Shown in pieces: positions 18,001 to 39,000 of a DNA stretch of 64,000 nt. Each line of letters opens with the position of its first letter. The first letter of the stretch is position 1. Position numbers and translations under genes: made by a program. The notes beneath the pieces were generated by a model. The model was not told the origin of the DNA, made no database searches, and saw nothing but the letters and a program-made list of their open reading frames with translations. Location: positions 119 through 64,118 of the forward strand of contig JAKQPK010000029.1 in NCBI GenBank assembly GCA_029564765.1, written 5' to 3'. The stretch comes from Candidatus Omnitrophota bacterium (GTDB taxonomy: Bacteria > Omnitrophota > Gorgyraeia > Zapsychrales > Aceulaceae).

Positions 18001-21000
18001 GATCCGCAAATTCTTGATCATTTTCCCCAAGGCCGCTGTTTCTTATATGTCCTTAGTTTATACAGCGTTCTCTGTAGGTATGAAAAAAGCAATGAAGAAT
18101 AATGGTGATTATGTAAAAACAGGGCGTCGACCTGGCCGAGAACATATGGCGCCGTTTAAGCCTTTGTCAGCAATTGAACTTTTTGATCAGGATGGAAATC
18201 CAACAACAGAAACAAAAGAAGAAATCCAAGGACAAAGAATTGGCGATGCAAGTGATCTTTATGCGCAAATTAATTTGCCGGGCTTCCAGTGGGTGATCAT
18301 CGCTGTCTTTACTATTGCTGGCGGCATCTTCTTGTGGCAAAGCCCTTCAATGATTTGGTCTTTATTCCCGATTGGTATGATCGTTTGCGCTTTGTTTGCT
18401 CCGTTCATTTTGAATGCCGGTTCGTTACCGTTTACTACTGGTGTAAGATCCTGGATTCATCAGCATAGCGCTGATTGGAAAGACTTCCTTAAGAAGATTC
18501 ACGAACAATATCTTGAGGAAGTTAGCATTATGAAGCTTAAGAAGAAAACAAATTTTTACATTGAGAAAAAAATAAAAGACGTTGGTAAGAAAGCAAAAGA
18601 TGATTTAAAGAAGGGAATCCAAGGAGAAAAAGAAGAAGCCCAGGCAAAGAAAGCATTGCAAGATTATCAAGATGCTCAACAGGCAAGAAAGCAGGCGCTC
18701 GGAAAAATTAAAGTTTGGCAAGGAGCTCTTGCTTGGCTTGTCGTCACGACTATTGGCATCTTAACCGTTGTTTTTGCCGGAGGAAAAGTCTTCATCATCT
18801 TAGCCGCAACACTTTTGCTCTATACACTTTCTACGTTTGTCACCGGAACCAAAAGCATAGAAACATATTTAGCTGGTAAAAAGAAGTTTCCTTCTGTTGA
18901 TCAAGATAAAAATCCTTTTTATGCAAAAATTATTAAAGCACGTATTGTCATATATCAATGGGTTATCAAAAACCATATTTTTAAAACTATTTTAAAAACA
19001 CGAATTTCGATATCTAAATGGATTATCAAGGTCAGAGAACTCTTTAATTTTTATGTTTCTGGAACAGCTATTATGATAACGCTAACCATCGTCGGTTTTA
19101 TAAGCATCATTTTTGCTGCCCCTTATTGTATGATTGTAGGCTTAAAGAAAACCCGAATTTTAAAGAAAGGCTTTAATCCAAAGAATCGCGGAGCAGCTAA
19201 CGAGAATTCTTCAAATGATCCCCGTAACAGCCCCCGCAACAACCCGCCGGTCAACGAAAATAAGAAAGCCGTTTATGAAGAAGAAACAGAAAAAGCCGCT
19301 ACTGAAAAAGCTGAGCAAGATAGAATTGCTGAAGCTGCCCATATCGCCCAAGAGAACCGCAAAGCCCAAGAAGCCGAAGCTGCTCGCCTTGCTCAAGAAA
19401 AGGCAGATCAAGAAAAAGCCGCTCAAGCTGAAGCCGCCCGCGTGAACGGCCTTCTCGCTCAGATCAAGAATTTTATTCAATCCAGCGAAGTTACGGATGC
19501 CTTAATGAGCGATGCCGATCAGCGCGTTAGCGAGGCTGCTTCGCTTAAGAAGCAAGAGTTAAGAAATGCTGAGGCTCAGGCTGAAAAAGAAGCTGCTGAA
19601 GCCGCCCGCCTTGCTGATGAAAAGGCCGCTCAAGAAAAGGCAGATCAAGAAAAAGCCGCTCAAGCCGAAGCCGCCCGCCTTGCTGAAGAAAAAGCTGAAG
19701 CTGATCGTATCGCTGGTGAGAAAGCGGGCCAAGAAGACACAGAAACGACTCTTAACGCCCAGCAAGCCGAAGCTGATGACCGCATCGCTGAAAATAAACT
19801 TAAAGCCAATAAAGCCATAGATTCTCTTCAAAAATTGATCGATCAATATAACAATCTGATCGAGAAGTTTCGCGCTGGCAATGATCTTGCGACCGCGCAG
19901 AAATATGAACAGCTAAGAGATCAAGTTCAGGGAAAGATAGAAAAAATACGCAATGAAAATAACGGCACACTATCTTCCGCCCTTAAAGCAAATAACAGCT
20001 CAAGCTCTTCTTCGGTCAGATCGTGGAAAAATATCTTCAACAGAAATAAGATTTCTGCGCAAGATCCCGCAGAGCAGTCGACAGATAGATCAGCCGAAGA
20101 CTCTATCCAAGTTCCTGAATTTAACGAAAATGGACCTGTCAAGGTAACGCCAGAAGCAGAGGAATTGGAAGACCTGATCAGATCATTAGTTGATCAATAT
20201 AAGAACTATCTTGCCATTGTCGAAGATGTTAAGGCTCGCCTGCCGCAATTAGAGGCTTTGAGAGTTTTGTTGACCGAAACGACAAAGCAAGTGGAAGAGA
20301 CCCAAGAACTTGCGATGGGCAATGAAGATCCTGAAACGATATCAGCGATCTCAGAGGCAGTTCTTGAGATGATCAGCACGACCGAGACCTTAAGAGCGGA
20401 TCTTACAAATTTCGAAAATGAAATTGTTACTTTAAAAGAGCAGGCTGGCCAGCGATTGAACGCAATGGGCGACCTGTACGAAGACATCGCGCAAAAACAA
20501 AGATTTTATCAAGAGAAGAAAGAACAAGCTTCTCGCGCGCAGCAAAAAGCCCAAGATGCTCTGCGTAAGGCTCATGATGAATATAACACTGCCAACAACA
20601 GCCAGCAGACAGCCATAAGTCTTGTAGGCGAAAAAGAAGCTGCCGCAACAAAAGCCCAGGAAGCGATCAACGTTCTATTGCAGAGCATTCAGACAGCCAA
20701 AGAATGGCTCGATCCTTTGAAAGAAGAACTCCGATCCCTTGAGCAAAGAATACGTGACGAAAAAGCATTAGAAGCTGGTCGTCGAAGCCAGAGGGAAACC
20801 TTCGAAAATAGGGCTGATCATCTAGAAAATAAAAAGAATGTATTGCAAGCAGAATTAGATGCGATCGACCAGCAGCTTAACGATGTTTTGAGATCTTTAT
20901 CTGAAGCGCGTGCGAAAGAGGCGGAAGCGTTGCTTCTGATGACCACGAAAGAGGCTGAAGAAAACGACGCCCGTTTAGCCGCAAAGGCCGCGCAAGCATC

Positions 21001-24000
21001 TTGCAAAAAAGCCAAAGAAGAAGCTTTAGCGCAAAGACGTAGCGAAGAATTAGCCCGCACTCTTGCCCAAGATGCTGAGATCCAGGCTCAAGGATTTGAA
21101 GAAAATGAAAATGATGCCAGAAGCATAGCAGAAGCTAATGAACAAAAAGCTGAAAGCACCTCCAGCGACTATCGATCCGTACAAAAACTTGCCTCTGACA
21201 AAGAAAGCGCAATGTTGCGCGAACAAGCTGATGAGCAAGAAGCTACGCGAAAAGTTTATGATCTGACAGAGCAAAAGCTTCAGCTGGAAAAACAGGCGCA
21301 ACAAGCACAAGCAATTATTGCTCAAAAAGAACGCGAAGCTAAGGCCTATCGGACAAAAGAGCAGAACCATAGAATGCTCGCGGAGCAGAAAGAAAAAGAT
21401 ATAGAACAGCAAGAAAAGATCAAGCAAGAAGCTCGCGAGCGGATGATCAAAGAAGGTTTGCAGGCAAGATCTGCCTCTTTATGGGAGCAGCATGAAGAGA
21501 TCAGGAAGCTTCTTGCTTCTGCTGAAAACGATAAAGGAACGCTGCAAAGAACAATCGACGACAATGTTTTGTCTATCGGTAAGCTTAAAGAAGAGCAAGC
21601 AAAGAATAAAGAGAGGCTATCTGATGTTTTGCAAGAGATAGAAGCTGTTCGCTCTAAGATCCAAGAAAGCCGGAAAAAGATCTATGATGCCAACAATGGC
21701 TATGGGGCTTCTTTAAAAGAAAGAAATTCACAGGCCGTTGCTTCAGAAAGCGGCATGGACGAGTTGTTGTTCTCGCAAAGAACCCTTTTAACCGAGAAAC
21801 AACATTTAGAGGAGAGGGACACAGAAATTAGCCGAGCGCTTGGAGGCTTGCAAAATAGTCTAACAAAGCATCGCATTGCTGTTGTCTCGCTTAATAAGAA
21901 AATTGTTGAAAATAGCCCGAAATTTAGGCGCATACGAAAAGAAGCAGAAAGCGTAGATCAGCTGATAACAGACCTGCAGAGCGCGATAGAAAGGGCCAAT
22001 GCCGCCAGCACAGAATATGTTCTTGCTGCTCAGAAAGAACGCAGGCAGGAAGACGAAAATCGTCAGTTGGCAATAGGGATTGAAATAGAAATAAAGAATG
22101 CAAAGTCTTCTAAAGACCAGGCAAAAAAGATGATCGAAGACCTGGAACAGCAGATCCTTGGCAAGAAGGCCGCGCAAGAAACAGCAAAGAGCAGATTCTT
22201 TGAGCTAAAAAGCTCTTTTGGATCTTTGCAAGCACGTGCTCGCGCCTTGGGCGAAGAGAATAAGGGCGCGTCTGAGAAGGCGAAGGCCGCGCGCGATCAG
22301 GAAAAGCTATTTTGTCAGAAAAAAGAAGAATCTTTGCATGTGGCCCGCCTAAAGCGTCAAGAGGAGCAAGAAGCTCGTCAGGAAGCGGAAGAGCAAGAAG
22401 CGCTTTCCCACAAGAAAACACAAGAGCACAATCTGTTTTTAGCTAAAGCTCGGGAAGCAAAGGAGATCTCTCAGCAGCAAGCCCAGATCGTGGAGGCGCA
22501 GCAAAAGAGGATCCTTGAGCTTGAGATCCTTCAGCAGCAGTTCAGCGAGAGCTCTTCTAAGAAGCGTTCTCAGGTAGGACGGCTAGCGCAGATCCTCAAT
22601 CTTTTATTCAAGGAGATCAACGAAAAGATCCTCAACGAGGAGAATCTGAGACAATCTTGGCAAGAATATGAGCAACAATACAATACACAGCAGACTGTTT
22701 ACGCGTCTACGTCAAAAGAGAAATTTGACGCTGAACAAGAAGTCCTTAAGCAACAAAACATCCTTCAGCTATCACAGCAAGAGAAGATAAGGCAGGAAAC
22801 GATCGCTTATGAGGCTCAGCAAATAGCCGAACGATCACAGACAGAAATAGATCATCTGAGCGCAAAGATCTTGCGCGCCCAACAGGATGAGATCCGCTTT
22901 GGGCAGGTCATGATCGACATAGAAAGGCTGCATACGGAAACGACACGCCAATGGCTTGCAAAGATCTCCGATGAGATCAAAAAAGACCGATCACAAGGCC
23001 AAGGCGCTTCGCCGATATCTGAGCCTTTCATTCCCGTGCCGTCGATAACACCAGCGTCTTCGATCTTGTTGCCGAGTATTTTAATGCCAACATTTATAGT
23101 GATCCCAGGCTTTTTAAGCCGTTCGTACCCATCCAATAGGGGCCAAGGCGTTTTAAGTAATGATGCTATTCGCGCTTGGCTTGCCGAAAAGATTTCTGCA
23201 CCAACAAAAGCTGTCAAAGAGAACCAGGGGTTGGTGTTCGGAAAGCCGTTGTCGCAATCGACAACGGCTTTCTCTTTGCTTCGCCCCAGGGAAAATTTGG
23301 TCAGGGATGAGATTTCTTCACAAACAGGCCGCTGTCAGAATCTTCCTACCGTGGCAGGAAGCAAGATTTCTTCAACAGCGGCCTTTGCTTTGATCGATAA
23401 GTCGTCGAAGGCTGACCTTCTTTCCGTGGCTGGAACGGGCACCGATGTGGCGACTTTAAATTTTGCTAACAGGCCGTTATTAGAAACATCTTCTTTCCGT
23501 GGTCCCGCTCCTCTCATTCAAAATTTTGTTTATCAAGGAAAAGGAAGCGGTATCCAGATTTCCTCTCGAAATAAATTTAAGGGGAATCTGGTCTGGAACC
23601 GGGTTTCGAGCACGGCCTGTTCTTTATTTTTCAGTGGTTTCAATTCGACTTCTAAATTTTTCTCACAAAACAGGCCGGCGCTTAATCCTTACCGTGGCAG
23701 GGAAGATTTTAATGCACCGGCTTCTGTTTCTTGTTCATTGATAAATATTTTAAGAACGGTCTCGATCTGTTTCTTGGCCGCCGCTATCTTGACTTTTGCA
23801 TCTTGCAAGAAAGAGGAAGAAGACCTGATCAGCCAAGGCATTTGGCCGGTCAGCGTGACGACCCAGAATAACCAGATCTATGTTGATGGCACGCAGTTTC
23901 GGATCAAGGGCCTCACAGCAGACCAAAAACTCTTGACCATGGATGACCTCGCGCAGATCAAAAAGCTTGGCAATGACATTACCTTGCGCGTTTATCTGCC

Positions 24001-27000
24001 TGTTGTGAACAAAGAACTTTTAGCAAAAGCTGCCCAAGAGAATATTAAGCTTATTATCGTTATTCCTTATGATATTAAAGCCGGATCTGTTTACGCTCTT
24101 AAAGACGGTTTTTATGCGGCTTATATCGAAGACTATAAAAAATACGCTGCTATTTTAATGTACGAACTTGGCAACGAATATAATCTCCACCCTGAATGGT
24201 TCAACGGTGACATCAATGTTTGGTACGCAGCCGCGGAAGAGGCTGCTCAAGTGATCAAATCGATCGATCCATCTCGTCCAGTCTCGATGTCTTTTGGCGG
24301 TTGGGCTCCAACCCCTGATATTATCGCCCAATGTCCTTCTGTTGACGTCTGGAGCTTAAACGTTTATCAAGGCTTAAGCTTAAGCGGTGTTTATTCCGCT
24401 TGGCAATCCTTAGGCGTCAACAAGCCGATGTATGTCGGTGAAACAGGCGCGGATTCTTGGAATGCTACAACAAATCAAGAAGATGAGGCTGCACAGGCGT
24501 ATGCCGCTAAAACGCTTTGGCAGGAATATGCGCAGTCCTACACAAATGTTTGCGCTGGCATAACCTTCATGACCTTGCAAGACAATCCTACCTTAACTCA
24601 AAGCCTTCCGTTGTCTGTTTATCCGGATAACACGGCCAATGAATGGGCATGGGGCTGGCTCAGATCTAACGGAACACCCAAAGCTGTTGTCGATACCATG
24701 GCCAATGTGTGGGCGGGGAATGGCGGTAAGAAAAATATAAAAATTAAGCTGGCCCCCAACGAGAAGATTGAAAAAAAGAACAGCAATAAAAAAGTATCGT
24801 CCGCTATTATTTTAGATATTTATGATCCAGGCTTGCTGCTTTTGACAGTTGTTTTTTGGGGGGGTGCTATTATTTTTGTCATTTACCACATATTGAAGTT
24901 TATTGCGAGCACTATACAAGAAGTCGTAAGAACGCGTCAAAACAAAAGATCGCAAGCAAATCAGCAAGGAAAAGATGAGCTAAAAGAGATCTTTTTGTCA
25001 GCTTTAAGGGATGTTGACGAGGGTAAAGGAAGCGGAGAAGTTAAAGAAGCTTTTATTCGTAATCGTCAACAGTTAAACCAATTATTTGCCGAAAACAGCA
25101 TTATTTATCGTGAGCACACCTGGGGGACGATGATGGTTACCCCAGATGGCGTATACAATAATGAATATGATTTCCCACAAAGATACTCTAACACAAAAGA
25201 GCGAGAGGAGCTCGTAGGCAGCAAGAATATTGAAGATTTTGGTTATCAAGATTCCTTTTTAGGGGACGAGAAAGCTGGTATAGAGATCACGTATCGACTA
25301 TCTCGTAAAATAAACACTGCGAAGCTGAAAGATTTCTTTCTTCAGTTTACTCGGGAAGCGGCGATAATATTTTCCTATATTCCCGGAGAACCTTCTGAAG
25401 CCGTTTTTTCTTTTCAGCTTCTTTTAGACGAAGCTCTTGTAAAAGCTGCGGAAATCTACCAGCAAGGTTTTCATTTCAAAATTGATATAGACGAGGCAAC
25501 AGAGGAGAGAGGAAGATATCATTCTTGTACAGATGCAAATAGTAATCATTGCTGTGGTGAACCTTATGCTTCAGGATGCCCAGGATCAGGATATTGGGTT
25601 GTTACGGGGATCTCCACTCGTGTTACTAAAAACGGCGAGATACATAAGACAAAAAAGACCTCTTCTTCAACCCTTAGCCAGCGCAAAGCCCAAGAGATAT
25701 TATTCTCCTTTTTAGCGCAGGAAGACCAGCTTCCTTCTGATCCGGCTGACTTGTTGTTATTGTTAGGCAACAGCCGCTTGGAAACAGTTGAATTAGCTGC
25801 ATATATATACAATCAAGGATTAGCTAGAAATATATTTGTTACCGGCGGCATTGGAAGGGAAACACCATTTCTCGTTAACAACATCAAACGATCTGGAAGA
25901 TATTTAGTCCAGTCGAACCAGCCTGAGGCGTACATATTTAAGGATGTTCTTGTCGCCAATGGGGTCCCAGAAGGCGCTATTTTTGTAGAAGACCTATCAA
26001 CTAATTCAAAAGAAAATATTATTTATAGCAAAGAGATCATTGAGGATCGAAATATTGCGCATGATGTTGTTATTCTGGTCCAGCATCCTTTGATCCAGAA
26101 AAGAGCGGTGGCCACATTCAAACGCTGGATGAGCGATGATGTTGTCATAAGCCGTACGCCTTCCTGGAGAAACATTTGGAATAGACTGACAACAGAAGAG
26201 CAACGAGATTTCACAAAGATGGCTTTAGGAGAAATTGATCGACTTCAAAAATATGGTCCCAAGGGCTTTGGCGATATTGCTTATGTCAAGATCCCTTCCC
26301 GGGTATCGGAAGCATATTCTATTTTAAAAGGAAAGATTTCTTCATCTATTTCTTCTTTTCGTTTTTATTTTAAGTTATCTCTGCTTGTCTTAAGTCTGGG
26401 CCTTTTTACTGCCTGTTCTTCTCGCGATCAGAACGAGAAGAACAATCAGGCGGAACAATCGGTACGCCAGTGCCCACAGATGAAAGTCGAAGACAGGGCA
26501 AAGCTTTCCGATATTCTTGAGCGCGCAGGGTATTCTGGCGCGGCTAAGGATCAGCTGATTAATGAGTTTGCAATACTTTTCCAAGAGATCAACTTTGAGC
26601 GCTTCCAGAAAGAATTACAAACCGAAGATCCTGAAGATCTGGAAAAAGCCATCAACGAACTTATCAGCGTTCTTAAGGGAAAAGGATATTTAGACACTTC
26701 CAATCCCAAGACATTGCTGAAGCTTTTAGTCAACGGTCTTAATCCAAGAGGCGAAGATGTTTTTAAATTGTTGGACGAGTCTAGCTTGAGCAACGAAGTC
26801 AAGACTTTAGAAAAAGAAATCCTTGTTGCTTGTTCTGCTCAATCCCAATTAGCATATATTCTTCTGCGCTTAGCTGATATATCTGCAATTGGAATTCTTT
26901 CAGATAATCCACATCTTTCAAAAGCCGGGCATGCTTATGTCATTATAGAAACAAGGAGCGGACGGTTTATTTTTGTAGATTTTGTAAATAGATTTGCTCG

Positions 27001-30000
27001 AATTATAAATCTTTTTAAGTTTTATCAAAAAGAAGGAGAATTTTGGGTAATAAAATTACAATATAGGTTAAATAAAGATGCATTACCTAAAAAGTCGCCA
27101 GACCTGAAGAGCTCCATAGACATAGAACTCCTTAATCAGCTTTCTTATTACTTTCTTATTTCATCAAAAGATAAAGGAGATTTTATTACTTCTGGCATCT
27201 TAGTTAATATCGCATCTACTTATTCTAAATTAGTTAGATATCATGAAGCAATGCAACTTTGTAAAGAAGCCATTAGACTTAATCCGAACAATGCCGTGGC
27301 ATTTTATAATTTAGGTGTTTTTTATGCTAAATTAAATCAATCTCATAAAGCAATTCAAGCTTATGAAGAAGCCATTAGGCTTAATCCGAACAATGCCGAT
27401 GTTTATTATAATCTCGGTGTTACATATGACAATTTAAGCCAATATAGCGAAGCAATTCAAGCATATAAAGAAGCCATTAGGTTTAATCAGAATTATGCTG
27501 AGGCTTATTCTAATTTAGGCGTTACGTATTGTGCTTTAATGCGACACTTTGATGCAGTTCGAGCATTGGAAAAAGCGATTAGACTTGATCCAAGCCTTGC
27601 CGAGGCTTATCTTAATTTGGGTAGTGCGTATTATCTGGCGGGAAACGAAAACAAAGCATTAGAAAGCTGGGAAAAAGCTGTGCAGTTAGACGGTACGTTT
27701 TTGAATCTGCTTCCTGCGAATATTAAAGCTAAAATTCTTCAAAAAGGCAGTTCAAGCGTTCAGGCATGCTTAAAGAAACTCGCGCTTAAAGGCCTCTTTT
27801 TAGCTATGGGAATAGGTCTTTTCTTTTCATGCAAGAAAGACAATATTGTGGAGCCTATCGATCCATCTCCGGCACAGGATACAGTTCCTGCTTATCTGCT
27901 CAATGAGCGCATAGGTTTTGTTGAGACCGGCTCAATCGATGGGGGTATGTTGTGGCTTAAAGATATGAAGGGCACAAATACAGCTCTATTAAGTGATGGG
28001 GTTTGGAGTGATGTCAAGTGGGCGCCTTGCGGCGATAAGGCTGTTTTTTCTATTCGAGAGAACGGGCAATATTTTATGAAAGTTGTTGATACCCTTGGCA
28101 CGATTAGAATTAAGATGACAGATGGGGCAGCCAATTATGACGCTCAATGGCTAAGTGATACAACAGTGCTTTATACAAATAATTTTGATGGTATTTATAA
28201 GCTTAACGTGAATACAGGCATTTCAGAAGTTCTTTTTAAAACAAACGGTTATGTGCTGGACCATAATCCTGCAGTTCACGGAAACAAGCTTGCGTTTATT
28301 GAGCATTATTATGAAACATTCTTTTCTTTGAGGCTAAAAGATATAGACGGAACAAATAACTTTGCAACATTATTCAAAGGGAATTCTGCATTTAACGAGC
28401 ATATGGGCTTAGTCTGGACGCCAGACGGTAGGAAGCTCATATTTTTCTCGCAGGTGAACGGTGGCCTTATTTATGTTTACGATGTTTTTGTTCGGTCAAT
28501 GGATACTATCAGCCTTCAAGATCTCGGAATACCAATGTATATGAGGATGCTTCTTTCTCCAGACGGCCAGAAGATTGCTATTGGCGGGCATTATGTAGTA
28601 AATATTGATGGGACTGGGTTTTCCCAGATGAACGAAAATATATATCAGCCGCTTGCCTATGCGTGGTCATGGGATAGTCAATATATCATTGCTTCTCCAT
28701 GGAACCAGGATGTTTATATTTATAGCGTTGATGGATCAAAGGGATACACTGTTAAAGACGTTACGCGGAAGCCGTATTTTATTAATGGAATATCATGGCG
28801 TCCTCAAGGAGATAAAAAGGGCGTGATTGTTGGCGGCAAGGCCAATTCTCCGATCGGTTCTCGTCAGGACATTCCAAGCCTTCCTTTGATGGACAGATCT
28901 ATCAGTAGTCCTATGAATTTATTGCCGACCATGCCGGTCTTTGCGCCGATGATGTTCGTCGCCGGCGCTGTGCCGGGTGCAAGGTTTGTGCTGACAGCTT
29001 TGGCAGTCTTAACGATTATTACGATCTTAGGAAAGTGGTTTGCTAAGCGAATTAGTGCGTCTAACGCTGATCAGCAAGCATCAACTTTGGTTTTGTTCTT
29101 TGAAAAAATGAAGTTGATGTCAGGTCTTTCGGTTGAAATGAAAGAAGAAAAAGACCTGAATAACTTTGCGGCATTTTCCAACAGGCCGCTGCCCAATCTT
29201 CCTTCCGTGGCAGGAATTAGATATGTGGCAGCGGCTGCTTTCTTTTCTTACCGCAGTCCCGCTTTCCTAAGTAAGAATAAAGGAAGCGTTACGACTGTCT
29301 TCGCCAATCGTCCCGTTTCCCTTAAAGAAAATCAAGGAAACGGTATCCAGATTTCCATTAAAAATCGATTCAAAGTGAATCTAGTCAGGATGAAAGATTT
29401 GGCACCGACCTTTGTTCTTTTTCCCCAAGCCTCTTCCTCAGCGTTAAAAAATGATTTTGATATGCATATTTATTCTATGCTTAACGTGATTCCTTCGGTT
29501 TCTGCGCAAGGATGGTCTTTCGGGGTAAAAGAATTTTCAAAAATTTTAGCCAACGCAGACATCCGCTATTCAATTGAGGTTGGAAGCTTTGTTAAAGGAT
29601 TTCCTAAATCTATCGCACGAACACTACACTTAAAGTTTCTCGATTCAAGTATTAAAGGATCGCCATTGTTGAATTTAGCGAGCGCCGAAACTCGACAGAA
29701 AGCCGAAGATGGTACGCTTCATCTATATGATGTTGTTAAAAAAGTTAGACCGCAGATCATATCTTTCCATCTCGGATTTTCAGTAGAAGCGGTCGTTGTG
29801 AATTCTAAAACAAGAGATTTTGAACCAGCGTCAAATACTTTCAGCGCGATGACGCAAAGCGAGGTTTTTGATAGCATTGCTGCGACAACACGCGCCATTT
29901 TCGAAGCCTTGAAAAATTTAGGATATAAGAAAAATGATCTTCTTTTAGAAAATCTTGTTTATTCTGAAAATGGCGCGTTTGAACATGTTTGCAATCCATA

Positions 30001-33000
30001 TTTTATCCGTTCTGTTTGGCAGGAAACAGAATATGGAGCGCTGGTCGATTTCGGTCACGCCTTTGTCAGTGCTAAGCTACTCGGTTACGATCCAAAAGAT
30101 TACATTAAGATTATTATTAATAAAGATAATATTTCCCATCTTCGGGAGGTCCACATCGCTGTTCCAGGTTATGACCAAGGAAAAAAGCAATGGAGAGATC
30201 AGCACAATTGTTTCTCCAGCGATACCGGGAGCGAAGCCAACCAAGCGCTAAGATCCATGCTTTATTATATCTTAGACCTTAGAAGAGTAGAGAGCGTGTC
30301 CGAGCCTTTGATTGTTAATTTTGAGACAGGAGAGGAAAGCGCGACCAGAGAACTTGATGCTTTAAATAGCTATTTGTGCGAAGTTTCTTCAAGCGTGTTA
30401 TCTTTTTTTAGAAATTGGCGGGAAATACGTAAGGAAAAAAGAACGATAGAAGCCATTCAATTTATCAACAGTTTTGATGAAAAGGATGACAACAATATAT
30501 ATATAAGTGAAAATTTAATAATGAATGATGTTTATGATAGGTATGTTAAGACAGGCGTAAATTTTTCACAGTTTATGGAATATGCTGCATTTCTTGCGGC
30601 GACCAAAGATCATCGAAGATTCAAAATTCTTCCAAAGCTAAGAGAAGTATTTTTAAAGCTACCCTCTAAGGTTACCAGAAGCTCCCTCTACAATGGTGAT
30701 ACCTTTGTAGGCATAACATCCGGTTCTTGTTTTGAGAGTGACGAGCTTTTAAAGATAATAAATGACATAGAAAGCTCCTTAAGAGAAAGAAATTCTTCGG
30801 CAACAGCTATTTCCTCCCCAAGCCGATACAATCCTCATAAAAGTTTTGGGTATCGTCCGCAGAGCTGGAATGAGGAAAAAGGTTTTGAGTATCAGCCAAG
30901 AAGAAAATATTCTTATCCCATCAGAGAGCGCTCTTCCAAAGGCTCCGAAAACGACCAAGAAAAAGAGAGCGAAGCATCTTCTGAGCAAGAGAATGATCCG
31001 CAAACGTCTGAAAACAAAGAGCAGCAAGCAACCAGCGAGAGTTCTTCGAACGTCAAGCTTGTAAAAAGAATAGAAGCGGTCGTTCCGCGGCTGGAAAAGT
31101 ACGCCTTTACCTATATTAAAAGCTGCTATTTGTATGATCATAACGCTCATAGCAAGCTCTCCAGGGTGCATCCCGCGGCTATTTATCTTCCTTTAGTTTT
31201 CTTTTTAGAAGGAGGATGTTCATCCTACCCGCATGTAGAAGAAGCGATCGCATTATTAGCTATCATTTTAGAACCTCAAGATTTCGAAGGCTTTCAGAAG
31301 TCTGCCTGCGCTTGTGACGCCAAACCTGTTCATTTGGTCTATCGCGCGATGGCAAGATCAGAAAAATATCACACAAAGAAAGCTTCTATGGCGAGCCCTC
31401 TGGCGTCCGTGATATCAAGCAGTCTTCGCCGTTTTGTTCTGACCACCATTGTTTTGATCGCTATGAGCGTGACATCCCTTTTCGCCCAAGCGATACCCCA
31501 AGAGAACGCCCAGCTCGATGAATCATGGCGCGTGCGTTTTCTCGCGATCAATGCCAGAGAGATAAAACATTTGGACATGATCTCTATCGGCCAAGACGTG
31601 TATGATACTGTTTTACGTGGTCAGCTTGAGCGAGAGATCGTTCAAAAGAGAGTGTTCTTGGAAAAGAGTTCTTGGCAGTATCAGGAAATGGAGCAAGACA
31701 AGGAAGTTTTGCGTATTTTAAAACTTGTTGAAAACGCGAAAAATAAGCGAGACCTTGAAAACATTGTCATCGGGTCGCAAGTATTCGATCCCCAAGTTAG
31801 GGCGCAAATACAAGAGCATATTGTAAGCGTAAAGACGCAGCTGAAGAATTCCCAGGAATTATCTTATATTGAGGAAATGCTTAAGTTCTCGACTGAAGAA
31901 GACTTTTTGAAGAGAGCGGGAGTTTTTCAGTATATGCGTGCTTTCCCTGCAGAGCAAAGACTTTATGTTGAGAATAAAATTGCTCGGCAGCAAAGAGTGT
32001 TTGAAAAAGAAAAAGAGTATGCGCTTGCGATCTCACGCTCCCAGGGGTACTTATCTATTCTCAGCGATCTTTCGCAATGCACGAACCAGCAGGAAGTGAA
32101 TTCTATCCGCATTGATTGGGATTTGTACGATACGTATCTTAAGCAGGCGATTAGACAGGCGATACGCCAACGCTTAGAGGAGATCGATCAAGAGGCTTCT
32201 TTACACGGCCTGGAAAAAACGTTTTACGCGCGGGAAGCATTCCTTCAAAGCGCGATGCTTTATTTAACAACAGACGCTCGTCTTTCTCTCAATATTTCCA
32301 GTGATAATCCCTGGCTTGAACGATGGATCAAAAAGGAATTAATCGCGAAAGAGCGAGAATTGGTCTCTGGCAAGTTTGATATTGAGCAGGAAAAGGAAGT
32401 TTTACGTTTTTATCGAGCCATGATCGATGCCGATCAGGTAGATCTTTTGGATAGTCTGAAATATGGTCCTCAGATAACTTCTTTAGAGGTGCGCGAACAA
32501 TTGCTGAGAGAAAAGCAAGCAAAGCGAGATCTTTTAAAGAAAATAGAGGATCGTTTTCGAGAAATGGAACAATGGGCTAAGGTCGTCGATCTGCAGAGCG
32601 CGATATTTTATGCTAACGCACAGAAAGATCTTGAGGGTTTTTATGTTGATCCACAAGTCTACGATGCAGACATCCGTCAATGGCTCATGTACCAAGCCCA
32701 AGCGAAACGCCGCGTACTCGCGCAAGATGAAGAAGTGAAACGTGTAGAAAAGAAGATCGATTCCGCTGCGCGCTCTTATGATCTTGAAAACATTTTTATT
32801 GGAAAAGCAGTTGTTGATCTTTCAACATACAAGGAACTTGCGGCCAAGATCTCCGTGCGACAACAAGCCCTTAAAGAACAAGAGCGCTTGCGCATAAGGA
32901 TCCTTGAGCTTCAGGGATCTTTGAGCGTTCGCCAGGATATCCGGCGGGCTTATCAGACCCAAGACCTTGCTCGTGTTAAGATCGATGGCAATGTGACCGA

Positions 33001-36000
33001 TCAAAAGACGCTTCAGCGCGAGATCTTGGATAAAAAAGCTTATTTTGATCTTCAAAAAAGCTTATCGTTTTTGATGGATCGCGATAAGGAGATCTTAACG
33101 ATCCGCTCGCTTGTTGATAACGCCAATACAATCAATGATATAAACATTGTCCAGGCCCGGGTCAAGATCCTGGAAGAGGTAAGGTTTTTTGACGGAACCG
33201 ATTGGGCGCGAAGACTTCAGCAAGAGATCTCGATAAAGAAAGCCGAGATAGAAAAGAAAGACGACACGACACAAAAAGGAAGCGTGAATATTTTCATGAT
33301 CTTTTTCGCCTTTTTGTCCCAGCCCTGGCAAGCCCTCAAGCGTTATGCCAGCCGCCTTCTAAGCCGTCGATCTATCCGCGAACAGACCTTGCAAGAGGAT
33401 GACCAAAAAAGATCACAAAATGATAATATTCTGCGATGCGATGGATTTCGCATCGTTGAAAAGAACGTTTTTGTACCTGAGCGATTGTGGAAAGATATCG
33501 TCAAAGGGCCTTTGAGCGAGAAGATCAGCTTAGCCTTAAGGTCTATCGATGAGAATCCGTATTGTGGATTTTTAGCACGTGAATATCATTTACGTGTTTT
33601 TGTTTCGGATCGGGTCCCTGGCGCAAAGCTTTATGGATACAAGCTTGGCCCGTCACAAAGTTTGTTCTATGTCGTTTTTGATTCTCAGAAAATCCTTGTG
33701 GCAGGTGTTATCTATAATGAATTTACGCACTATTTATCTAAGAATAAGCATTGGATCGCAACGACCCAGCATACCATTGATCGCTTTGTCGCGCTGCATA
33801 GGCAAGCTCTGCAGGAAAGAACAGAGACTGTAGAGATCCCTGAAAACAAACAGAATGTGCCGTTACGTTATATGCAGGCGTTCGCGGCGCAATATGACAA
33901 GGTTGAATTTTTATACACAGAAAAAGACGGCCGAGCCTATTTTGTTATTCCAACGTCGATACAGCGCGTGAAGGACATCGTTGAGAGCAAAGGATTTAGA
34001 TATCAGATCGTTGAAAAACGTTCAACACCGACATTCTTTATTTTAGGACCTGACGATGAGCGCATAGGTCGTTTTGGCGTGTACGATGAGCGTGTTGTTA
34101 TTAATCCATGCCATGTGAACAGCTGGGATCAGGTTCAGACGATCATCGCGATCACGCGTCTTGCTCTTGACCTTAAACCCTTAAGCACGACAGGGCGTAC
34201 GAAGATCTCAAGCGGCATTCTTTTCGATCGAAGATCATGGTTTTCGGCAGATCTATTTTCTGAAAGGCCGCTGTCAATATTGCTATTTTTATCTTTCAGC
34301 TCTTTTGTGAGCAACCATGGCGGTGAGGATAAGAATGGAATGACAGCGGCCTTTTTTGCGATAGGAGCACCTATTCTTCCGCCGCAAGAGCTTACCGACA
34401 ATGTTCATTTAGCCTATCCTGTGGAGCTTGATACGCGCTTGAAGGACACCAGGCCTTCGATGAGGATAGCGACTTTCAAAGCTAAAAAGATCCTTTGGAA
34501 GGTAAAAGATTTTTCTTTATTCTTTTACGCGACAGCGCCTTTTATGTTTTTGACAGTTGGCGCTCAACAAGCGAAAGAAGAAAGCAAGGTTCGGGTTTTC
34601 GCGCCTTTGTCTTTTTATCCGGAGGCGGTTTTACGCTACAGCAGGCCAAATGTCAGGATCACTGTGTTTAAGGTCAAGAAGATAGAATGGAAAGTAAAAG
34701 ATTTTTCTTTGATTCCCCAAGCCCTTGCGCGTCAGGATCAGGATCAGCCAAAGCTTCCAAGGGATCCAAAAAGCCTTCCTTTAAAGAGTGCGCCTGCCTT
34801 AAGCGCGCAAGAACAAAATATGGACATAAGAGTCTCAAGGCCTAAGGGATCTGTGATTACTGAAAAAGGAGATTTGAGCAGCAAGGCCCCAAAAGCTTTT
34901 GAACTTTCTCATAACGATTATGCGCGGGCGGTTGCATCAAGGACGAACGCTATTTCCTGGCATCCTATCAGCAGGGGAAGATCCGTTGCCTGTACCAGCG
35001 CTGTCCTTTCTGATCATTTCTTTTTAACAGTCCTTCATAAAATCACCCTTCTTTTAGCCCGTATCCATGATCGTTTCTTTTTTGGCAGTTCGCGACACGC
35101 AAATGAGCGGCTTTCCGCCCTGTTTTATCACGCGCTTTCTGAGAAAGGCCTGTGGATATCAAAATATTTAAGGACGCGGTCGCGAGAACAAGGACGAGAG
35201 GCTTTGTACCACGAAACTCTTAAGATAATATTTTTCATCCGAAAATTTTCAGAAAGAGCGTTAGGGATCTTGCGCCACGAGCGAAGCGCCGGTCTTTGGA
35301 TCAAAGATGATGAGGCGATCGAACAGCAGCCAAAAAATTTAATGCGCCAAGAACTCTTTGTTCCCGCTAATCCTCGTCCAATGGCCGCGATGGCTGAAGG
35401 CGATCCCAAACCCGAATTTATTTTCTCGAACTTTCCTGTTTTGGAAGAAAGCGCTACCCCCACCAGCGGACAACTGGGTGCCAAGCTTGGCATCGATGCG
35501 TACGAGAAGGGGAGTGCGTGGCCACAGGATAATTCTCGTTTATTCGTAGGGTCGCTTGCAAGTACGCGAGCGGCCTCTGTTTTTTTGTCTGTTGAGCAAG
35601 CGCTTGCTTCAAGCAATGTGTCGAACTGGAAACCGATCTTTCATGTTTCTGGCCAAGGCGTTCAATGGTATTTACCGGAATATTTTCAGAAGAAAGTTAG
35701 GATCACACGGTTTGGCAAGGGAAAAAACTCGTTCGTGGAGATCGTCGACACATCTTTGTCGCCCTGGGACACAGAGAACAAGATGCGTTTATATTTCCCT
35801 TCCAAAGGCTGCGCGCGCGTCGTGTTGTTAAGATTCTTCTCTCCTTCAGGATCACAAAAGATCGTTTGGGAAGAGAAAAGCGCGGAATTTCAGACGGATC
35901 GACGAGGGTATTCGTTGACACGCCATCCTTTGATCGCGGAATTCTTGTTGCGCATGTTCGCCGTACGCCATGCAGAGGATGAGCTGACCGTTGCTGTGCG

Positions 36001-39000
36001 TAAAGAGCTAAGAATGTTGTCCTCGTTCATGCCGTCCTTGAAAAGAGAACTTCGCAAACAAGGGGATCTGCGCTTTGAATGGAACCATGTGCGTTTTAGC
36101 GGATTGCCTTTCAATCGCAAGAACCGCAGTCAGAATAAAGACGCTGCTGATCAGCAAGACAACCATCCTTTCCTTATGTATTCTTTCCCGGGGAGTCTTG
36201 TTGGCAATCCGCTGTTCTTGATCTTTGTTGACCGTAAGGATAGCAGCCGATTTATCGTGTTGGGCCGGGATGAGGAAAAATTTTATGTTCTCAACGACAA
36301 AGGTATCAAGAAATATTTAAAAATAAAAGCTTCCGATGGCCATGGCCGCCACGAAGCAACAGCGGATCTAAGACAGGCTAAAGAATTCCGTGATTTTATT
36401 GGCCTTTCATCGCGCAACAGGATCCTTAAAGATCAATCCAGGGCCTCAGAGAAAAGGAATCATTTTTATGTCGGGTTCTTGGAAAAAGATTTGAGGGTCT
36501 GTTTTACCTCAAAGATCCCCTTGAATGTTGAAGTCGTCAAAGAGCGCGGACGTGTTCGTCGCTTGCTTATTTCTGACCGTCAAGGGCGAGAGATCACCCA
36601 GGTTGCTGCTTTGGGAGATCGACAGTTCTTTGTTAAACACCTTGTTGATAAGAACAGCAAGCCCATTATTTTCACCGTTTATGGCAAGGCTGTCTTGATG
36701 AATGCCGTGTTAACGCGTATCAAAGATATTATCAATCCTTGCCAAGAAATGGCGATCATGCGCCAGCAGGTTTTTCCTTCGTCAAAGCCAGGCTCTCAAT
36801 TTTGCCCTATGCGGATCGTTGAGAAGAACGGCAAGACGAAGGTTATTTTCGAGAAAAAAGAAAAAGGTAAGGGCGCGCAAAATAAGAATATTTCTTCAAG
36901 CCTTGATTTGTCGCTTGATTCTTTCATAATACATATAAGCCTTTCTCAAAGATCAGACTGCCCTGTTAAAAGTTTAAAAGCTATCTTACCTCGTCCGTGG
37001 CTGGTGGGGGGTAGCTCTTTTAACAGGGCAGTTTCTTCTAGTCTTTCGCGCGCGTCATCCAACAACGTAAAGAACAGCAAGCAAGAAAGAACTCTGCCCA
37101 AAGATTCCATGAGCCCGCACAATATCGTTGATCTTCTGGGTATGCCAAAATATATCGGAGCTCAAGGAAAAGGGTCTTATGTAGTCTTAGATTACATGAA
37201 CGCGATCGTTAAGCTGGTCGGCTCTCTTGAGGATGCTCAAAAGCTCATTGGCGAGAAATTATTAGAGAGATTGTCTCAGTCGGAGCAAGGGCTCATTAGC
37301 GCCCAAGGCCTGCAATATTTGGAAAAAGTCGCGCTGGATATTTATGTTCCTCTGGCGATCCGGCTCGGACTTGAACCATTGGCGCAGGAACTTCGTGATC
37401 GCGTTTTTCGAGCTATTGACCCGGATCAATATCAAGAAACAGCTCGGCAAATGCAGGAAGCGACCGGGATGGATGCTGGTCAACGTAAGGCCTTTTTGGA
37501 TACTATTAGCGACCGCGTTGTAAGCAAATTGCGCAGTACCGCTGGCATTGTGATCGTCAATGAAGAGCATCGCGTCAAAGGTATTTACGCCTCAAGCCAA
37601 AAGATCGGACGCAAGGGCAAGAAAGGCAAGCAATACACTTGCATTAACGATCTCGAAGATCTTCTAGGCATCCATCTGATCGTTGACAGTGAAGAAAGTT
37701 TTTGGAATACGGTCGGACAGCTCAGAGGCTGGGCTTATAATTTTAAAGATATTAAAGGCGAGATCTTAGAAGATCAGACAGAACTGAAGAGTATTTATAA
37801 AGGAGACAATTATAACGCCCATCATTTTGGGGTCCGTATCCCTGTGGACGCTGGAGCGCAGAAGCGCTTTGTGATCCTTGAGATCAAAGTATTCAGCAAA
37901 AGCGAATATGACGCTTTCAAATACGGCAATGCCGCTGTCTGGATCTGGGAAGCTAAGAAAAGAAACCCTAGCCAGCGATTTGACCTTGATGGGCTTGTTT
38001 ACGTGAGCGAAAATGCGAAAGAAAGTTTTTCTTCTTTGCTTTCGTTTTTAAACAATTGGATATATGTTTTCTTGTATCAAGAACTGCCTTCAGGGGAAAC
38101 CGTTCTTCAACCTGTGCGCATGAAGCAGGGAGCCATTGTCGCTGATTTTCTAGCTGCGCAGTCAAAGGAAGACAAGCAATGTATCCATAGTGAACAGTAC
38201 CGACGTTTTTATAAAAAACCTTTTTCTTTGCAGATCGCTCGCAGCTATCGTCCACACGGCAAAGACGAGCGCGACCTTGGAGAGGCATTGTTCAACGCGG
38301 ATATCGTGCGTATCAGCACGCGCTATGCGGAGATGACCGTGCCTTTGATGCAGCATATAATGGCCCGGGCGCGATATTTTAAGACTATTAGCTTCTTACA
38401 ATCAGAACCTCGAAAGGCTGACAAGAAAGGCAATGATCTTAGTCCTAATGTTGAAGAATTTTTTAAGGAGATCGGAGGAACAAGCTTTGAAGCATTCTTA
38501 AGATATCACACGCTGACGGTTGCTCAGGCCAATGCGCTTCTCTCCAATAGCGTAATGCGTGTCCGTCTTGATCAAAGAGAGTCCGTTGTGCCTGGGGAAG
38601 AGACGATCAACATGAAGACCGTTATTTTTCAGTCTCCTTCTGGCCAGGCAAGAGAATCTTTTGTTTCCTTGCGCATCGAGATCGCTCAAGATCGCATAGG
38701 GTTCATGCGGGACATCCTTGAGCATATTTCTGCTTTTGGTGCTGTTATTGCTCAAGATCGATCCACACAAAAAGTTGTTCACATCGAATTAGTTCAAGTT
38801 GATCCCCAAGACCTTGATCAGCTATTTTCTTCGTTAAGTGATATTCAATTTCAGGATTTTGTCGCTGTGGAGCAAGTTCAATATCGGCCAGGCCATGTTT
38901 CTGTTCTCGTTTTGTCGGAGCAAAAAGGCTTTCGTTATAGGGCGCTTAAACTTCTTATTTTGCAACGTTTATCCCGGCTTAGCGTTAACTTTCAAGAAGC

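Follow-up and report, generated by a model that had tools for sequence, protein, structure and literature searches.

Terminator-shaped hairpins in the linkers of a giant, stop-free open reading frame of Candidatus Omnitrophota

A giant reading frame and its hairpin family

The stretch of DNA analysed here (the window; 64,000 nucleotides (nt) of contig JAKQPK010000029.1, assembly GCA_029564765.1, from a Candidatus Omnitrophota bacterium) contains, between 23.2 and 37.1 kb, a family of terminator-shaped hairpins that lie within coding sequence. The window itself is, as the evidence largely shows, part of one giant single open reading frame (ORF) of this organism: the frame with codons from position 2 has no stops across 2..64000 of the plus strand (21,333 codons) and is open at both window ends, whereas the remaining five frames hold from 738 to 1,581 stops. 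Comparison of the module at 31416-34100 with a related locus, L004 (a 42-kb contig, CAZAOD010000010.1, of a metagenome-assembled genome (MAG) labelled Planctomycetales, 8 kb of which were compared), gave a dN/dS of 0.215 in frame and of 1.0 and 1.24 in the two shifted frames, and because the ratio is low in frame and about 1 when shifted, the open frame can be taken as truly coding. For the long frame as such, comparison with L004 yielded 0.23, and 1.0-1.2 with the frame shifted.

The domains recognized in the window with Pfam and NCBIfam are an FKS-type glucan synthase, DUF218, TPR, MbnB/DUF692-like, RelA/SpoT, alpha-amylase, starch synthase (GT5), GT1 and HAD domains. With more than 21,000 codons, many transmembrane segments, and starch synthase, GT1, HAD, TPR and MbnB-like domains, the gene resembles the 'multi-enzyme' class of Omnitrophota giant genes (10.64898/2026.06.07.730766; 10.1101/2023.11.21.568195), although the papers describing that class (10.1101/2023.11.21.568195; 10.64898/2026.06.07.730766) do not contain the words terminator, hairpin, linker or fused.

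A preliminary description, made from the letters of the window, had reported three hairpins, copies A, B and C, and these were found at the positions and with the sequences it gave: GGCCGCTGT at 23327 pairs with ACAGCGGCC ending at 23383 (A), GGCCGCTGCC at 29184 with GGCAGCGGCT ending at 29236 (B), and GGCCGCTGTCA at 34266 with TGACAGCGGCC ending at 34351 (C), the last being a perfect 11-bp stem followed by T6. The three clusters it counted all exist, but the count was too low; with A0, A3, A4, E and D added, the family has at least eight sense-oriented members within 23.2-37.1 kb (A0, A1, a split A3, A4, B1, C, E and D). An inner palindrome said to be shared by A and B is indeed present in both (CTTCCTNCCGTGGCAGGAA at 23342 and 29198), with a two-mismatch copy at 23417, against a chance expectation of 0.04 matches. 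The family consensus is a GC-rich outer stem (RGCCGYUG.../...CARCGGCY) with a variable interior, often with an apical stem carrying a CCGUGGC loop, and the hairpins are flanked by A-rich sequence 5' and a U-rich tail 3'. The members and one partial copy are as follows (dG, folding free energy; z, z-score against shuffles; bits, covariance-model score; percentiles, tail score among sense-strand positions):

23240..23273, plus strand: hairpin A0; 15-bp stem, 4-nt loop, tail UUUCUCUUUGCUU; dG -37 with flanks, z -6.9; tail at the 0.8th percentile
23326..23384, plus strand: hairpin A1 (copy A); outer stem AGGCCGCUGU/ACAGCGGCCU, apical CUUCCU/AGGAAG, loop ACCGUGGC, U-rich tail
23414..23435, plus strand: A2; partial copy of the apical motif (CTTCTTTCCGTGGCTGGAA)
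23470..23619, plus strand: hairpin A3, split; 5' arm and apical half at 23470-23502, 3' half at 23593-23619, ending ACGGCCUG, then UUCUUUAUUUUU
23672..23722, plus strand: hairpin A4; AGGCCGG.../...CCGGCU, apical CCGUGGC loop; 79.8 bits; tail at the 2nd percentile
29183..29237, plus strand: hairpin B1 (copy B); tail CUUUCUUUUCUU, at the 0.2nd percentile; 91.4 bits
34262..34357, plus strand: hairpin C (copy C); perfect 11-bp outer stem, 15 bp including a GAAA/UUUU extension; U6
35548..35576, plus strand: hairpin E; minimal diverged member, AGGGUCGCUUGC/GCGAGCGGCCU with three G-U pairs, then CUGUUUUUUU (U7)
36955..37034, plus strand: hairpin D; 18-bp outer stem of unrelated sequence, family apical motif UCCGUGGCUGG, U-rich tail

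A0 is the top-ranked terminator-like site of the window scan and has the canonical intrinsic-terminator shape in a minimal family member. The halves of A3 are separated by a block of about 90 nt, the G block (23503-23592), and the interior of C consists of a 14-bp inner stem rich in G-U pairs together with two small apical hairpins. Since the 5' arms are all alike, and the 3' arms likewise, neighbouring copies can cross-pair, and their arms are interchangeable in that the 3' arm of one copy pairs with the next 5' arm, as with CGGCCUGUU/AACAGGCCG at 23613-23677. A further 14-bp perfect stem at 29890-29978 (ACGCGCCATTTTCG/TGAAAATGGCGCGT), which encloses an AU-rich 60 nt in the MbnB-like domain and reaches z -3.5, is not a member of the family.

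Stability, shape and conservation of the hairpins

When folded as RNA, a check that the preliminary description had proposed, and compared with 200 dinucleotide shuffles each, copies A, B and C were all far more stable than shuffled sequence, with dG of -30.2, -36.1 and -45.4 kcal/mol, z-scores of -3.86, -4.06 and -5.72 respectively, and 0 of 200 shuffles as good in each case. Across the family dG ranges from -19 to -45 kcal/mol and z from -3.9 to -6.9. Sliding 100-nt folds over the sense strand (about 3,200 windows) ranked C first, D second (36941-37040, z -5.5) and the A cluster third; D folds with a dG of -45.1 (z -5.4 against shuffles), and the entire 521-nt linker A folds with -179.6 kcal/mol against -146.5 +/- 6.3 kcal/mol (z -5.3). 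Contiguous 9-bp stems are common by chance, with 95 on the plus and 101 on the minus strand, whereas stems of at least 13 bp are rarely seen, and A0, C and D have the three longest of the sense strand (15, 15 and 18 bp).

The terminator-like shape that had been claimed is borne out by U-rich tails on the sense strand in every member. Using a TransTermHP-style score of the 15 nt 3' of each stem, every one of the eight window hairpins has a tail within the top 0.1-2.9% of sense-strand positions (mean -4.3 against a background of -2.16 +/- 0.67), while the antisense tails of the same hairpins lie between the 5th and 33rd percentiles. Terminator-like sites number 46 in the region from 18 to 38 kb, where 21.8 +/- 4.7 are expected; it is the sole enriched region of three, the counts being 26 (16.9 +/- 4.7 expected) for 1-18 kb and 23 (21.4 +/- 5.3 expected) for 38-58 kb. 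The stem and the U-tract of an intrinsic terminator are both present, but the position after a stop codon is not, as all copies lie inside the stop-free frame.

Folding of 13 copies from the window and L004 as RNA gave a sum of -369 kcal/mol for the sense and -319 kcal/mol for the antisense strand, with 25 G-U pairs in the sense against nine in the antisense form. C, D and E are each less stable by 9-13 kcal/mol on the antisense strand (plus versus minus: C, -45.0/-31.7, with five G-U pairs; D, -41.4/-30.4; E, -19.3/-10.7). This gap in strand dG, together with the G-U excess, favours sense RNA over duplex DNA as the form in which the hairpins matter. The sense orientation is shared by all 14 copies, although several of them, if reversed, would be free of stops in one or more frames; we considered whether stop codons had forced this orientation and rejected that explanation for the whole set, as several reversed copies would stay open. 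Openness in all three frames likewise fails to set the linkers apart.

Searches for known RNA elements were negative. The Rfam 15 covariance models gave no matches in the window at gathering score, and at E <= 1 over 22.8-37.3 kb only a chance-level gyrA match at 30732; ARAGORN found no tRNA or tmRNA in the window; by inspection there is no canonical in-frame -1 frameshift heptamer of the dnaX type in the 5' flanks (e.g. TTCACAAAC, CTCACAAAAC, TTTTCTGAA); and promoter-like sites are not enriched in the window (38 against 29 +/- 6).

In the reverse complement of L004 (L004rc) one frame is stop-free across all 8 kb, window 22939-23268 is matched at 94% and window 31416-34616 at 89% identity, and orthologues of A0, A1, A3, B1 and C as well as an A4-type copy are present. 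Between the window (GGCCGCUGU/ACAGCGGCC) and L004 (GGCCGUCACA/UGUGGCGGCC) the outer stem of A1 differs by three double compensatory changes and one G-U; in the A0 orthologue two A-U pairs have become G-C; and of the five substitutions in C, three are in stems, where pairing is kept via G-U, and two are in loops. The orthologues of A0, A1 and C thus stay paired through 3-8 stem substitutions, and that of A3 is contiguous in L004 (L004rc 523-582, dG -24). Hairpin C is 94.8% identical between the two genomes and its adjoining module 88.7%, with dS of 0.105 and 0.341, though these values come from small numbers. The stretch upstream of A0 (22939-23268) shows near-neutral protein evolution in the same comparison, with a dN/dS of 0.75 (6 synonymous and 14 non-synonymous changes) as against 0.2 in the modules.

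A covariance model built from three window copies recovers those three and four more in L004, all sense, and in the resulting seven-sequence alignment 89.9% of cells are paired. Changes on both sides are seen in 10 of 19 pairs, whereas sliding the partner by 1-3 columns leaves 1-4 such pairs; the observed covariation score of 0.43 compares with 0.09-0.18 for the slid controls, and none of 500 shuffles reaches either the score or the paired fraction. These comparisons support retention of the family under structural selection across the two genomes, and the suggestion in the preliminary description that selection acts on nucleic-acid structure gains from the compensatory and G-U changes between orthologues, the covarying pairs, the synonymous conservation of hairpin C and the frame shift of A1 between genomes. 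Its account of compensatory substitutions between copies A and B holds for one true pair (U-A to C-G), but the tgtca/tgaca arms that it quoted belong to C and not to A. The 1-nt indel and the frame difference that it noted between A and B are real.

The peptide encoded within the hairpins is not the conserved quantity; most of it is unconserved while the structure is conserved. We draw this from two observations: the 5' half of A1 is read as QTGRCQNLPTVAGS in the window and as HNRPSQESSFRGRI, in a different frame, in L004, the two rejoining at KISS[TV]AAFAL, and the apical CCGTGGC is translated as SVAG, FRGR, FRGP, FRGW or YRGR depending on the copy.

Linkers, modules and related genomes

From 23 to 37 kb the ORF is, as the data largely show, a series of modules resembling former genes, with short linkers between them that have low coding potential and carry lineage-specific hairpins. 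The codon-usage score is lowest at 22883-23870, 30491-31535, 34088-34424, 34625-35363 and 36770-37199. Features that mark these boundaries, in addition to the hairpins, are:

23738..23812, plus strand: lipoprotein-type signal peptide LINILRTVSICFLAAAILTFASC (LTFASC); opens the next module after linker A and marks a module boundary, outside the hairpin family
29290..29431, plus strand: remainder of linker B; second hairpin at 29313-29343 (CCGTTTCCCTT/AAGGAAACGG, encoding FANRPVSL...QGNG), G block at 29334-29390, T-rich run and CCCCAAGC at 29423
29462..30823, plus strand: MbnB/DUF692-like cassette, absent from L004; bounded by the direct repeat T(CC)TCCCCAAGCC at 29423 and 30816

The tail of A4, UCUGUUUCUUG, continues directly into the lipobox signal peptide at 23738; in L004, linker A is followed by a different module with a lipobox of its own (KGIFAWVFLNLTSC, NLTSC). 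Linker B, with B1, lies about 45 codons past a transmembrane helix and a basic cluster, GKWFAKR (28985-29060), which are C-terminal-anchor-like, and it precedes the MbnB/DUF692-like module, whose homologues include many stand-alone proteins of 250-375 aa. The region 28985-29060 and its L004 equivalent share PMNLLPTMPVF.PMMFVAGAVPG, the transmembrane helix and GKWFAKR, and resemble a signal for C-terminal sorting or anchoring in what was once a separate protein. Hairpin D is about 25 codons upstream of the Met that opens the RelA/SpoT-like module. The preliminary description had placed a signal-peptide-like segment after each cluster, and while that after A (LTFASC, 23738) is strong, the segment at 34530 is below the hydrophobicity threshold and B is followed by a cytoplasmic-type module.

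No Shine-Dalgarno sequence precedes the internal Met or the signal peptides in the window, whereas strong ones precede real genes in related loci (GGAGGAGG in L012, AGGAGGG in L016), and because the internal starts lack them the modules are probably not translated separately. Signal peptides with classical lipoboxes occur deep in the giant ORF (LTFASC at 23738, LFTAC at 26363), as do others with AxA-type sites (SAFAQT at 3512, SLFAQA at 31409), and signal peptidases I and II could cleave the polyprotein at these positions. Proteolytic processing of giant proteins has been proposed, with no cleavage sites known (10.1101/2023.11.21.568195), and one paper on Omnitrophota giant genes drops signal-peptide calls at internal positions, which it treats as artefacts of chunking.

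The interval from linker A to linker B comprises 5.1 kb in the window, encoding a lipoprotein, DUF218 and a TPR/beta-propeller lipoprotein, and in L004 an unrelated 3.2 kb with GNAT-like and glycosidase-like sequence. This complete multi-module replacement spans window 23738-28846 and L004rc 850-4050, with flanks that are 89-94% identical and a single frame open in both. The MbnB-like cassette is present in the window and absent from L004, from which we conclude that the linkers are breakpoints of module gain or loss; the open frame is kept through all module differences between the two. The G block (23503-23592 and 29334-29390 in the window; L004rc about 660-750 and 4340-4490) encodes the peptide G[NS]GIQIS..N.FK.NLV and has its own hairpin (CCAGATTTCC/GGAATCTGG; stem 23554-23591). 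Downstream of hairpin C (34463-34720) are two tandem units of about 20 residues, RIATFKAKKILWKVKDFSLF and RITVFKVKKIEWKVKDFSLI, that resemble the end of the G block (KDL/KDF...PQA). The sequence CCCCAAGC after a T-rich run occurs at four sense-strand sites (29423, 30816, 34715 and 41587), where about one is expected, and also at L004rc 4536. Three of the four sites are at a linker or cassette edge, two of them bounding the MbnB-like cassette, and that at 41587 is in a low-coding stretch; they are read in all three codon phases.

In the collections searched, the family has a narrow distribution. A scan of 185,579 species genomes with the hairpin pattern returned 11 loci, of which only L004 is related; the ten others (in Desulfovibrio, Blautia and others) were dismissed as GC-rich chance matches. 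The JGI metagenomes contained no match with the adjoining module protein or the most conserved linker 21-mer, no family copies were found in viral contigs, and the linker peptides have no homologue among 5.8 billion proteins. The sequences P0001-P0003 of the protein search are 100% identical to fragments of the Candidatus Omnitrophota MAG GCA_035417865.1, and searches with region A, linker peptides and the glucan-synthase region gave only fragments of the same MAG and one 53% match; a locus of this MAG (L013) equals window 28132-35847 with zero mismatches.

Six long-gene loci of Omnitrophota type (about 110 kb) were obtained via homologues of the MbnB-like module, and in these relatives the strongest hairpins directly follow genuine stop codons or lie in sequence that is truly intergenic. 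Their positions are:

L012, 18161-18280
L014, 17181-17320
L016, 9761-9900
L017, 23041-23180
L018, 21041-21260

One of these, a true terminator in L014 (GGCCGCAG...CUGCGGCC+UUUUCG), is close to the outer stem of the family. The window hairpins have the form and strength of the gene-end hairpins of the phylum, yet they lie inside a gene, which is unusual even among long Omnitrophota genes. In L016, the interval 9809-10000 between genes of 8,134 and 2,768 residues consists of a stop, an A-rich run, a 15-bp hairpin, about 130 nt, a strong Shine-Dalgarno sequence, an ATG and a signal peptide; linker A of the window has a parallel layout but lacks the stop and the Shine-Dalgarno sequence. Collinearity of a separate DUF218-MbnB gene of L016 with the window was considered and rejected, as only the MbnB-like parts match. 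L018 (10001-21007) and L019 (1154-12160), from GCA_041643075.1 and GCA_041643055.1 respectively, encode a 3,668-residue protein with MbnB-like, GDPD, methyltransferase and intein-splicing domains.

Elsewhere in the window, the 1,3-beta-glucan synthase domain at 16394-17879 is of the eukaryote type (FKS, PF02364, E 5e-74) and has many transmembrane helices on either side. There are two sets of tandem repeats: four copies of 222 nt at 1071-1771, which carry a strong hairpin (1640-1760; z -3.7), and four of 102 nt at 27220-27627, which are TPR units.

Proposed function, alternatives and significance

We propose, on the strength of sequence features and as a reading that is plausible but somewhat short of probable, that in the sense transcript the hairpins serve either as translation-sensitive terminators or as structures that stabilize 3' ends. 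With the leading ribosome close behind RNA polymerase the hairpin could not form and the polymerase would read through; were translation to lag or fail, the hairpin and its U-tract would terminate transcription, or would later block 3' exonucleases. This would produce sub-genic 3' ends at defined positions and supply upstream and downstream modules in graded amounts. When a terminator sits close behind a ribosome that is translating, it is largely silenced (PMC4824070). The interchangeable arms might also allow attenuator-like alternative pairings, and the repeated linker, being of one codon phase, may be the site of in-frame module exchange between relatives, as the breakpoints suggest.

Several known systems share some of these properties. 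Intrinsic terminators have a GC-rich stem-loop, an immediate U-rich tract and often an A-rich 5' flank at the ends of gene-like units, and leader attenuators have interchangeable arms that permit alternative pairings, but the window hairpins differ from both in lying inside a stop-free ORF, several per linker, with C and D being branched structures of 80-97 nt, and in lacking any leader peptide logic. Integron attC sites are also structure-conserved, sequence-variable hairpins bounding exchangeable cassettes, the content of which differs between close relatives; their R'' (RYYYAAC) and R' (GTTRRRY) core sites are however found in none of 13 copies, the window cassettes are fused in one frame, and one breakpoint (about 28846) lies outside a hairpin linker. 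The Rickettsia palindromic elements (RPEs; mentioned in PMC1779305) are palindromes that lie in frame in coding genes and are translated, with nucleotide-level conservation and predicted RNA hairpins; unlike the window repeats, which mark the seams of one giant ORF, they occur dispersed in many ordinary genes and have no U-tails. The likeness to RPEs is one of description, and homology is not expected as the host belongs to a different phylum.

A number of observations weigh against the proposal that the hairpins act in the transcript. No comparable in-ORF hairpin was found in the six related long-gene loci, where the best candidate (L017) reaches z -2.9, and since these loci lack them such hairpins are not general to giant genes. 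The family is present in only two genomes, the covariation comes from 7-14 related copies in an alignment fitted to the model, and matched changes in palindromes can arise without selection, via template-switch (quasipalindrome) correction or gene conversion. A and B fold equally well or better as antisense, A1 and A4 slightly better so; C and D, as long branched hairpins (80-97 nt), are atypical of efficient intrinsic terminators; and the mosaic, nested layout, with several hairpins per linker, is more typical of repetitive DNA. Termination within the ORF would leave non-stop mRNAs, normally triggering tmRNA tagging. The G block sits in the apical loop right behind CCGTGG both in A3 of the window and in an A4-type copy of L004, a position which suggests a site-preferring insertion or recombination at CCGTGG.

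The codon phase of the arms, which is uniform despite differing interiors, counts in the same direction. In the 5' arm, CCG forms an in-frame codon in 12 of 13 copies, and in the 3' arm GCY does so in all 13, the sole exception being the shifted 5' arm of A1 in the window, so that the reading in different frames emphasized by the preliminary description holds for that arm and for the apical CCGTGGC but is otherwise the exception. An in-frame F-x-N-R-P also recurs, the copy at 29300 using AAT CGT CCC and not AAC AGG CCG, and the earlier view that the peptide is irrelevant, while consistent with the reading of A1 in two frames, was therefore somewhat overstated. The codon phase and F-x-N-R-P hint at a constraint at the level of the peptide or of history; the uniform phase argues for copies that spread within a linker unit which was already translated, and against independent old terminators fused by accident.

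The main alternative is that the hairpins are palindromic DNA repeats, akin to repetitive extragenic palindromic (REP) sequences and bacterial interspersed mosaic elements (BIMEs) or to miniature transposable elements with inverted repeats (MITEs), that are selfish or recombinogenic and tolerated where they are stop-free, an explanation that we regard as rather unlikely though deserving of attention. The hairpin would then be needed as DNA, in single-strand transposition or recombination, its terminator-like look would be secondary and module exchange would result from inter-copy recombination. REPs and BIMEs of enterobacteria and pseudomonads are likewise multi-copy imperfect palindromes in mosaic clusters, and REPs lie between cistrons, where they stabilize upstream mRNA and terminate weakly. 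The window has at least eight copies in 14 kb, several per linker and mosaic in arrangement; the indel breakpoints between the window and L004 fall in linkers and are edged by direct repeats (TCCCCAAGCC); A and B are equally stable when folded from either strand; the G block breaks different hairpins after CCGTGG; and the uniform phase suggests one spreading unit. Palindromic elements translated in frame are known from Rickettsia and provide a precedent. But REPs are extragenic, untranslated, RAYT-linked, of alternating orientation and have a GT[AG]G head, whereas the copies here are in frame and without the head, GT[AG]G being present in two of 13 flanks (chance level), and the attC core sites too are absent; all 14 copies share one orientation though the reverse is often open. 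The asymmetry of the U-tails and the G-U excess favour sense RNA, and no target-site duplications were seen around single hairpins. As to copy number, against at least eight copies in the window and at least six in the 8 kb of L004 there are none in the other species genomes, the JGI metagenomes or viral contigs, so that the family, as seen, is confined to one gene region of one lineage. The REP-like and terminator readings are compatible, as REPs themselves terminate or stabilize.

Ribosome pausing at module seams, allowing the preceding module to fold or an anchor or signal peptide to engage the membrane-insertion machinery, would account for selection on sense-RNA structure and for the location of A0 about 40 codons after a hydrophobic segment (23063-23120), of B1 about 45 codons after a transmembrane segment (28985-29042) and of A4 against the lipobox signal peptide. 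It is nevertheless improbable, as no hydrophobic segment lies at the matching distance from C, D or E, the conserved U-tails are left unexplained and ribosomes readily unwind such hairpins. A signal at the peptide level, in which the linkers encode an F-[AS]-x-[RE]-P... recognition or cleavage motif for cutting the polyprotein and the hairpins are by-products, appears to us very improbable. The motif [FLYW][SAT]xRP[LAVI] does occur four times in 21,333 residues, each time in a linker and in one copy with other codons, the arms share their codon phase, and proteolytic processing has been proposed with its cleavage sites unnamed (10.1101/2023.11.21.568195). Against this, the linker peptides have no homologue in the protein collection searched, the A1 orthologues are in different frames and the apical motif is variously read, stem substitutions track base-pairing and not amino-acid similarity, and D lacks the motif.

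Neutral relics, that is decaying terminators of fused genes, or chance palindromes in low-complexity linkers are already disfavoured and highly improbable. Contiguous 9-bp stems are indeed common and the linkers are T-rich and of low complexity, but the longest stems, which are of a rare class, are those of A0, C and D, no shuffle matches the observed stability, eight of eight tails are in the top 3%, and the hairpins have been kept with compensatory changes over a dS of about 0.3. Stability, further copies and covariation thus speak against the coincidental palindromes in a coding linker that the preliminary description had allowed for. Its suggestion that the hairpins are relics of intergenic terminators, from genes since fused and kept without stops, agrees with the context, given the lipobox and signal peptides after linkers, the C-terminal anchor before one, the low codon-usage score and the terminators of relatives after stops, but the hairpins are not mere relics as their structure is maintained, and the shared phase points to the spread of a common linker cassette. 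Among the functions that the preliminary description listed (intra-ORF attenuator, RNase processing site, REP/MITE-like repeat) it made no choice.

The proposal that the hairpins are translation-sensitive terminators or stabilizers of 3' ends bears on how giant genes work. The papers on Omnitrophota giant genes leave open whether the very large transcript and protein function as a unit or are divided, and name no division points; candidate division points can now be given at exact coordinates, at the RNA level as terminator-shaped hairpins and at the protein level as the lipobox and signal peptides that follow hairpins. There is also sequence-level evidence for the growth of such genes, in which gene-like modules appear to be joined via a repeated linker and replaced or inserted between close relatives with the frame kept open. 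If the hairpins terminate only when translation lags, they would constitute an attenuation logic within coding sequence that polices an extremely long message. In the broadest form of this thinking, which we consider unlikely but worth stating, Omnitrophota giant genes would in part consist of operons or cassette arrays that a reusable in-frame adapter linker has welded into a single frame, with hairpins punctuating expression through translation-sensitive termination or processing, signal peptidases cutting the polyprotein and modules being swapped in frame. Were this true, it would represent a previously undescribed gene organization and an answer to how giant genes are expressed and grow.

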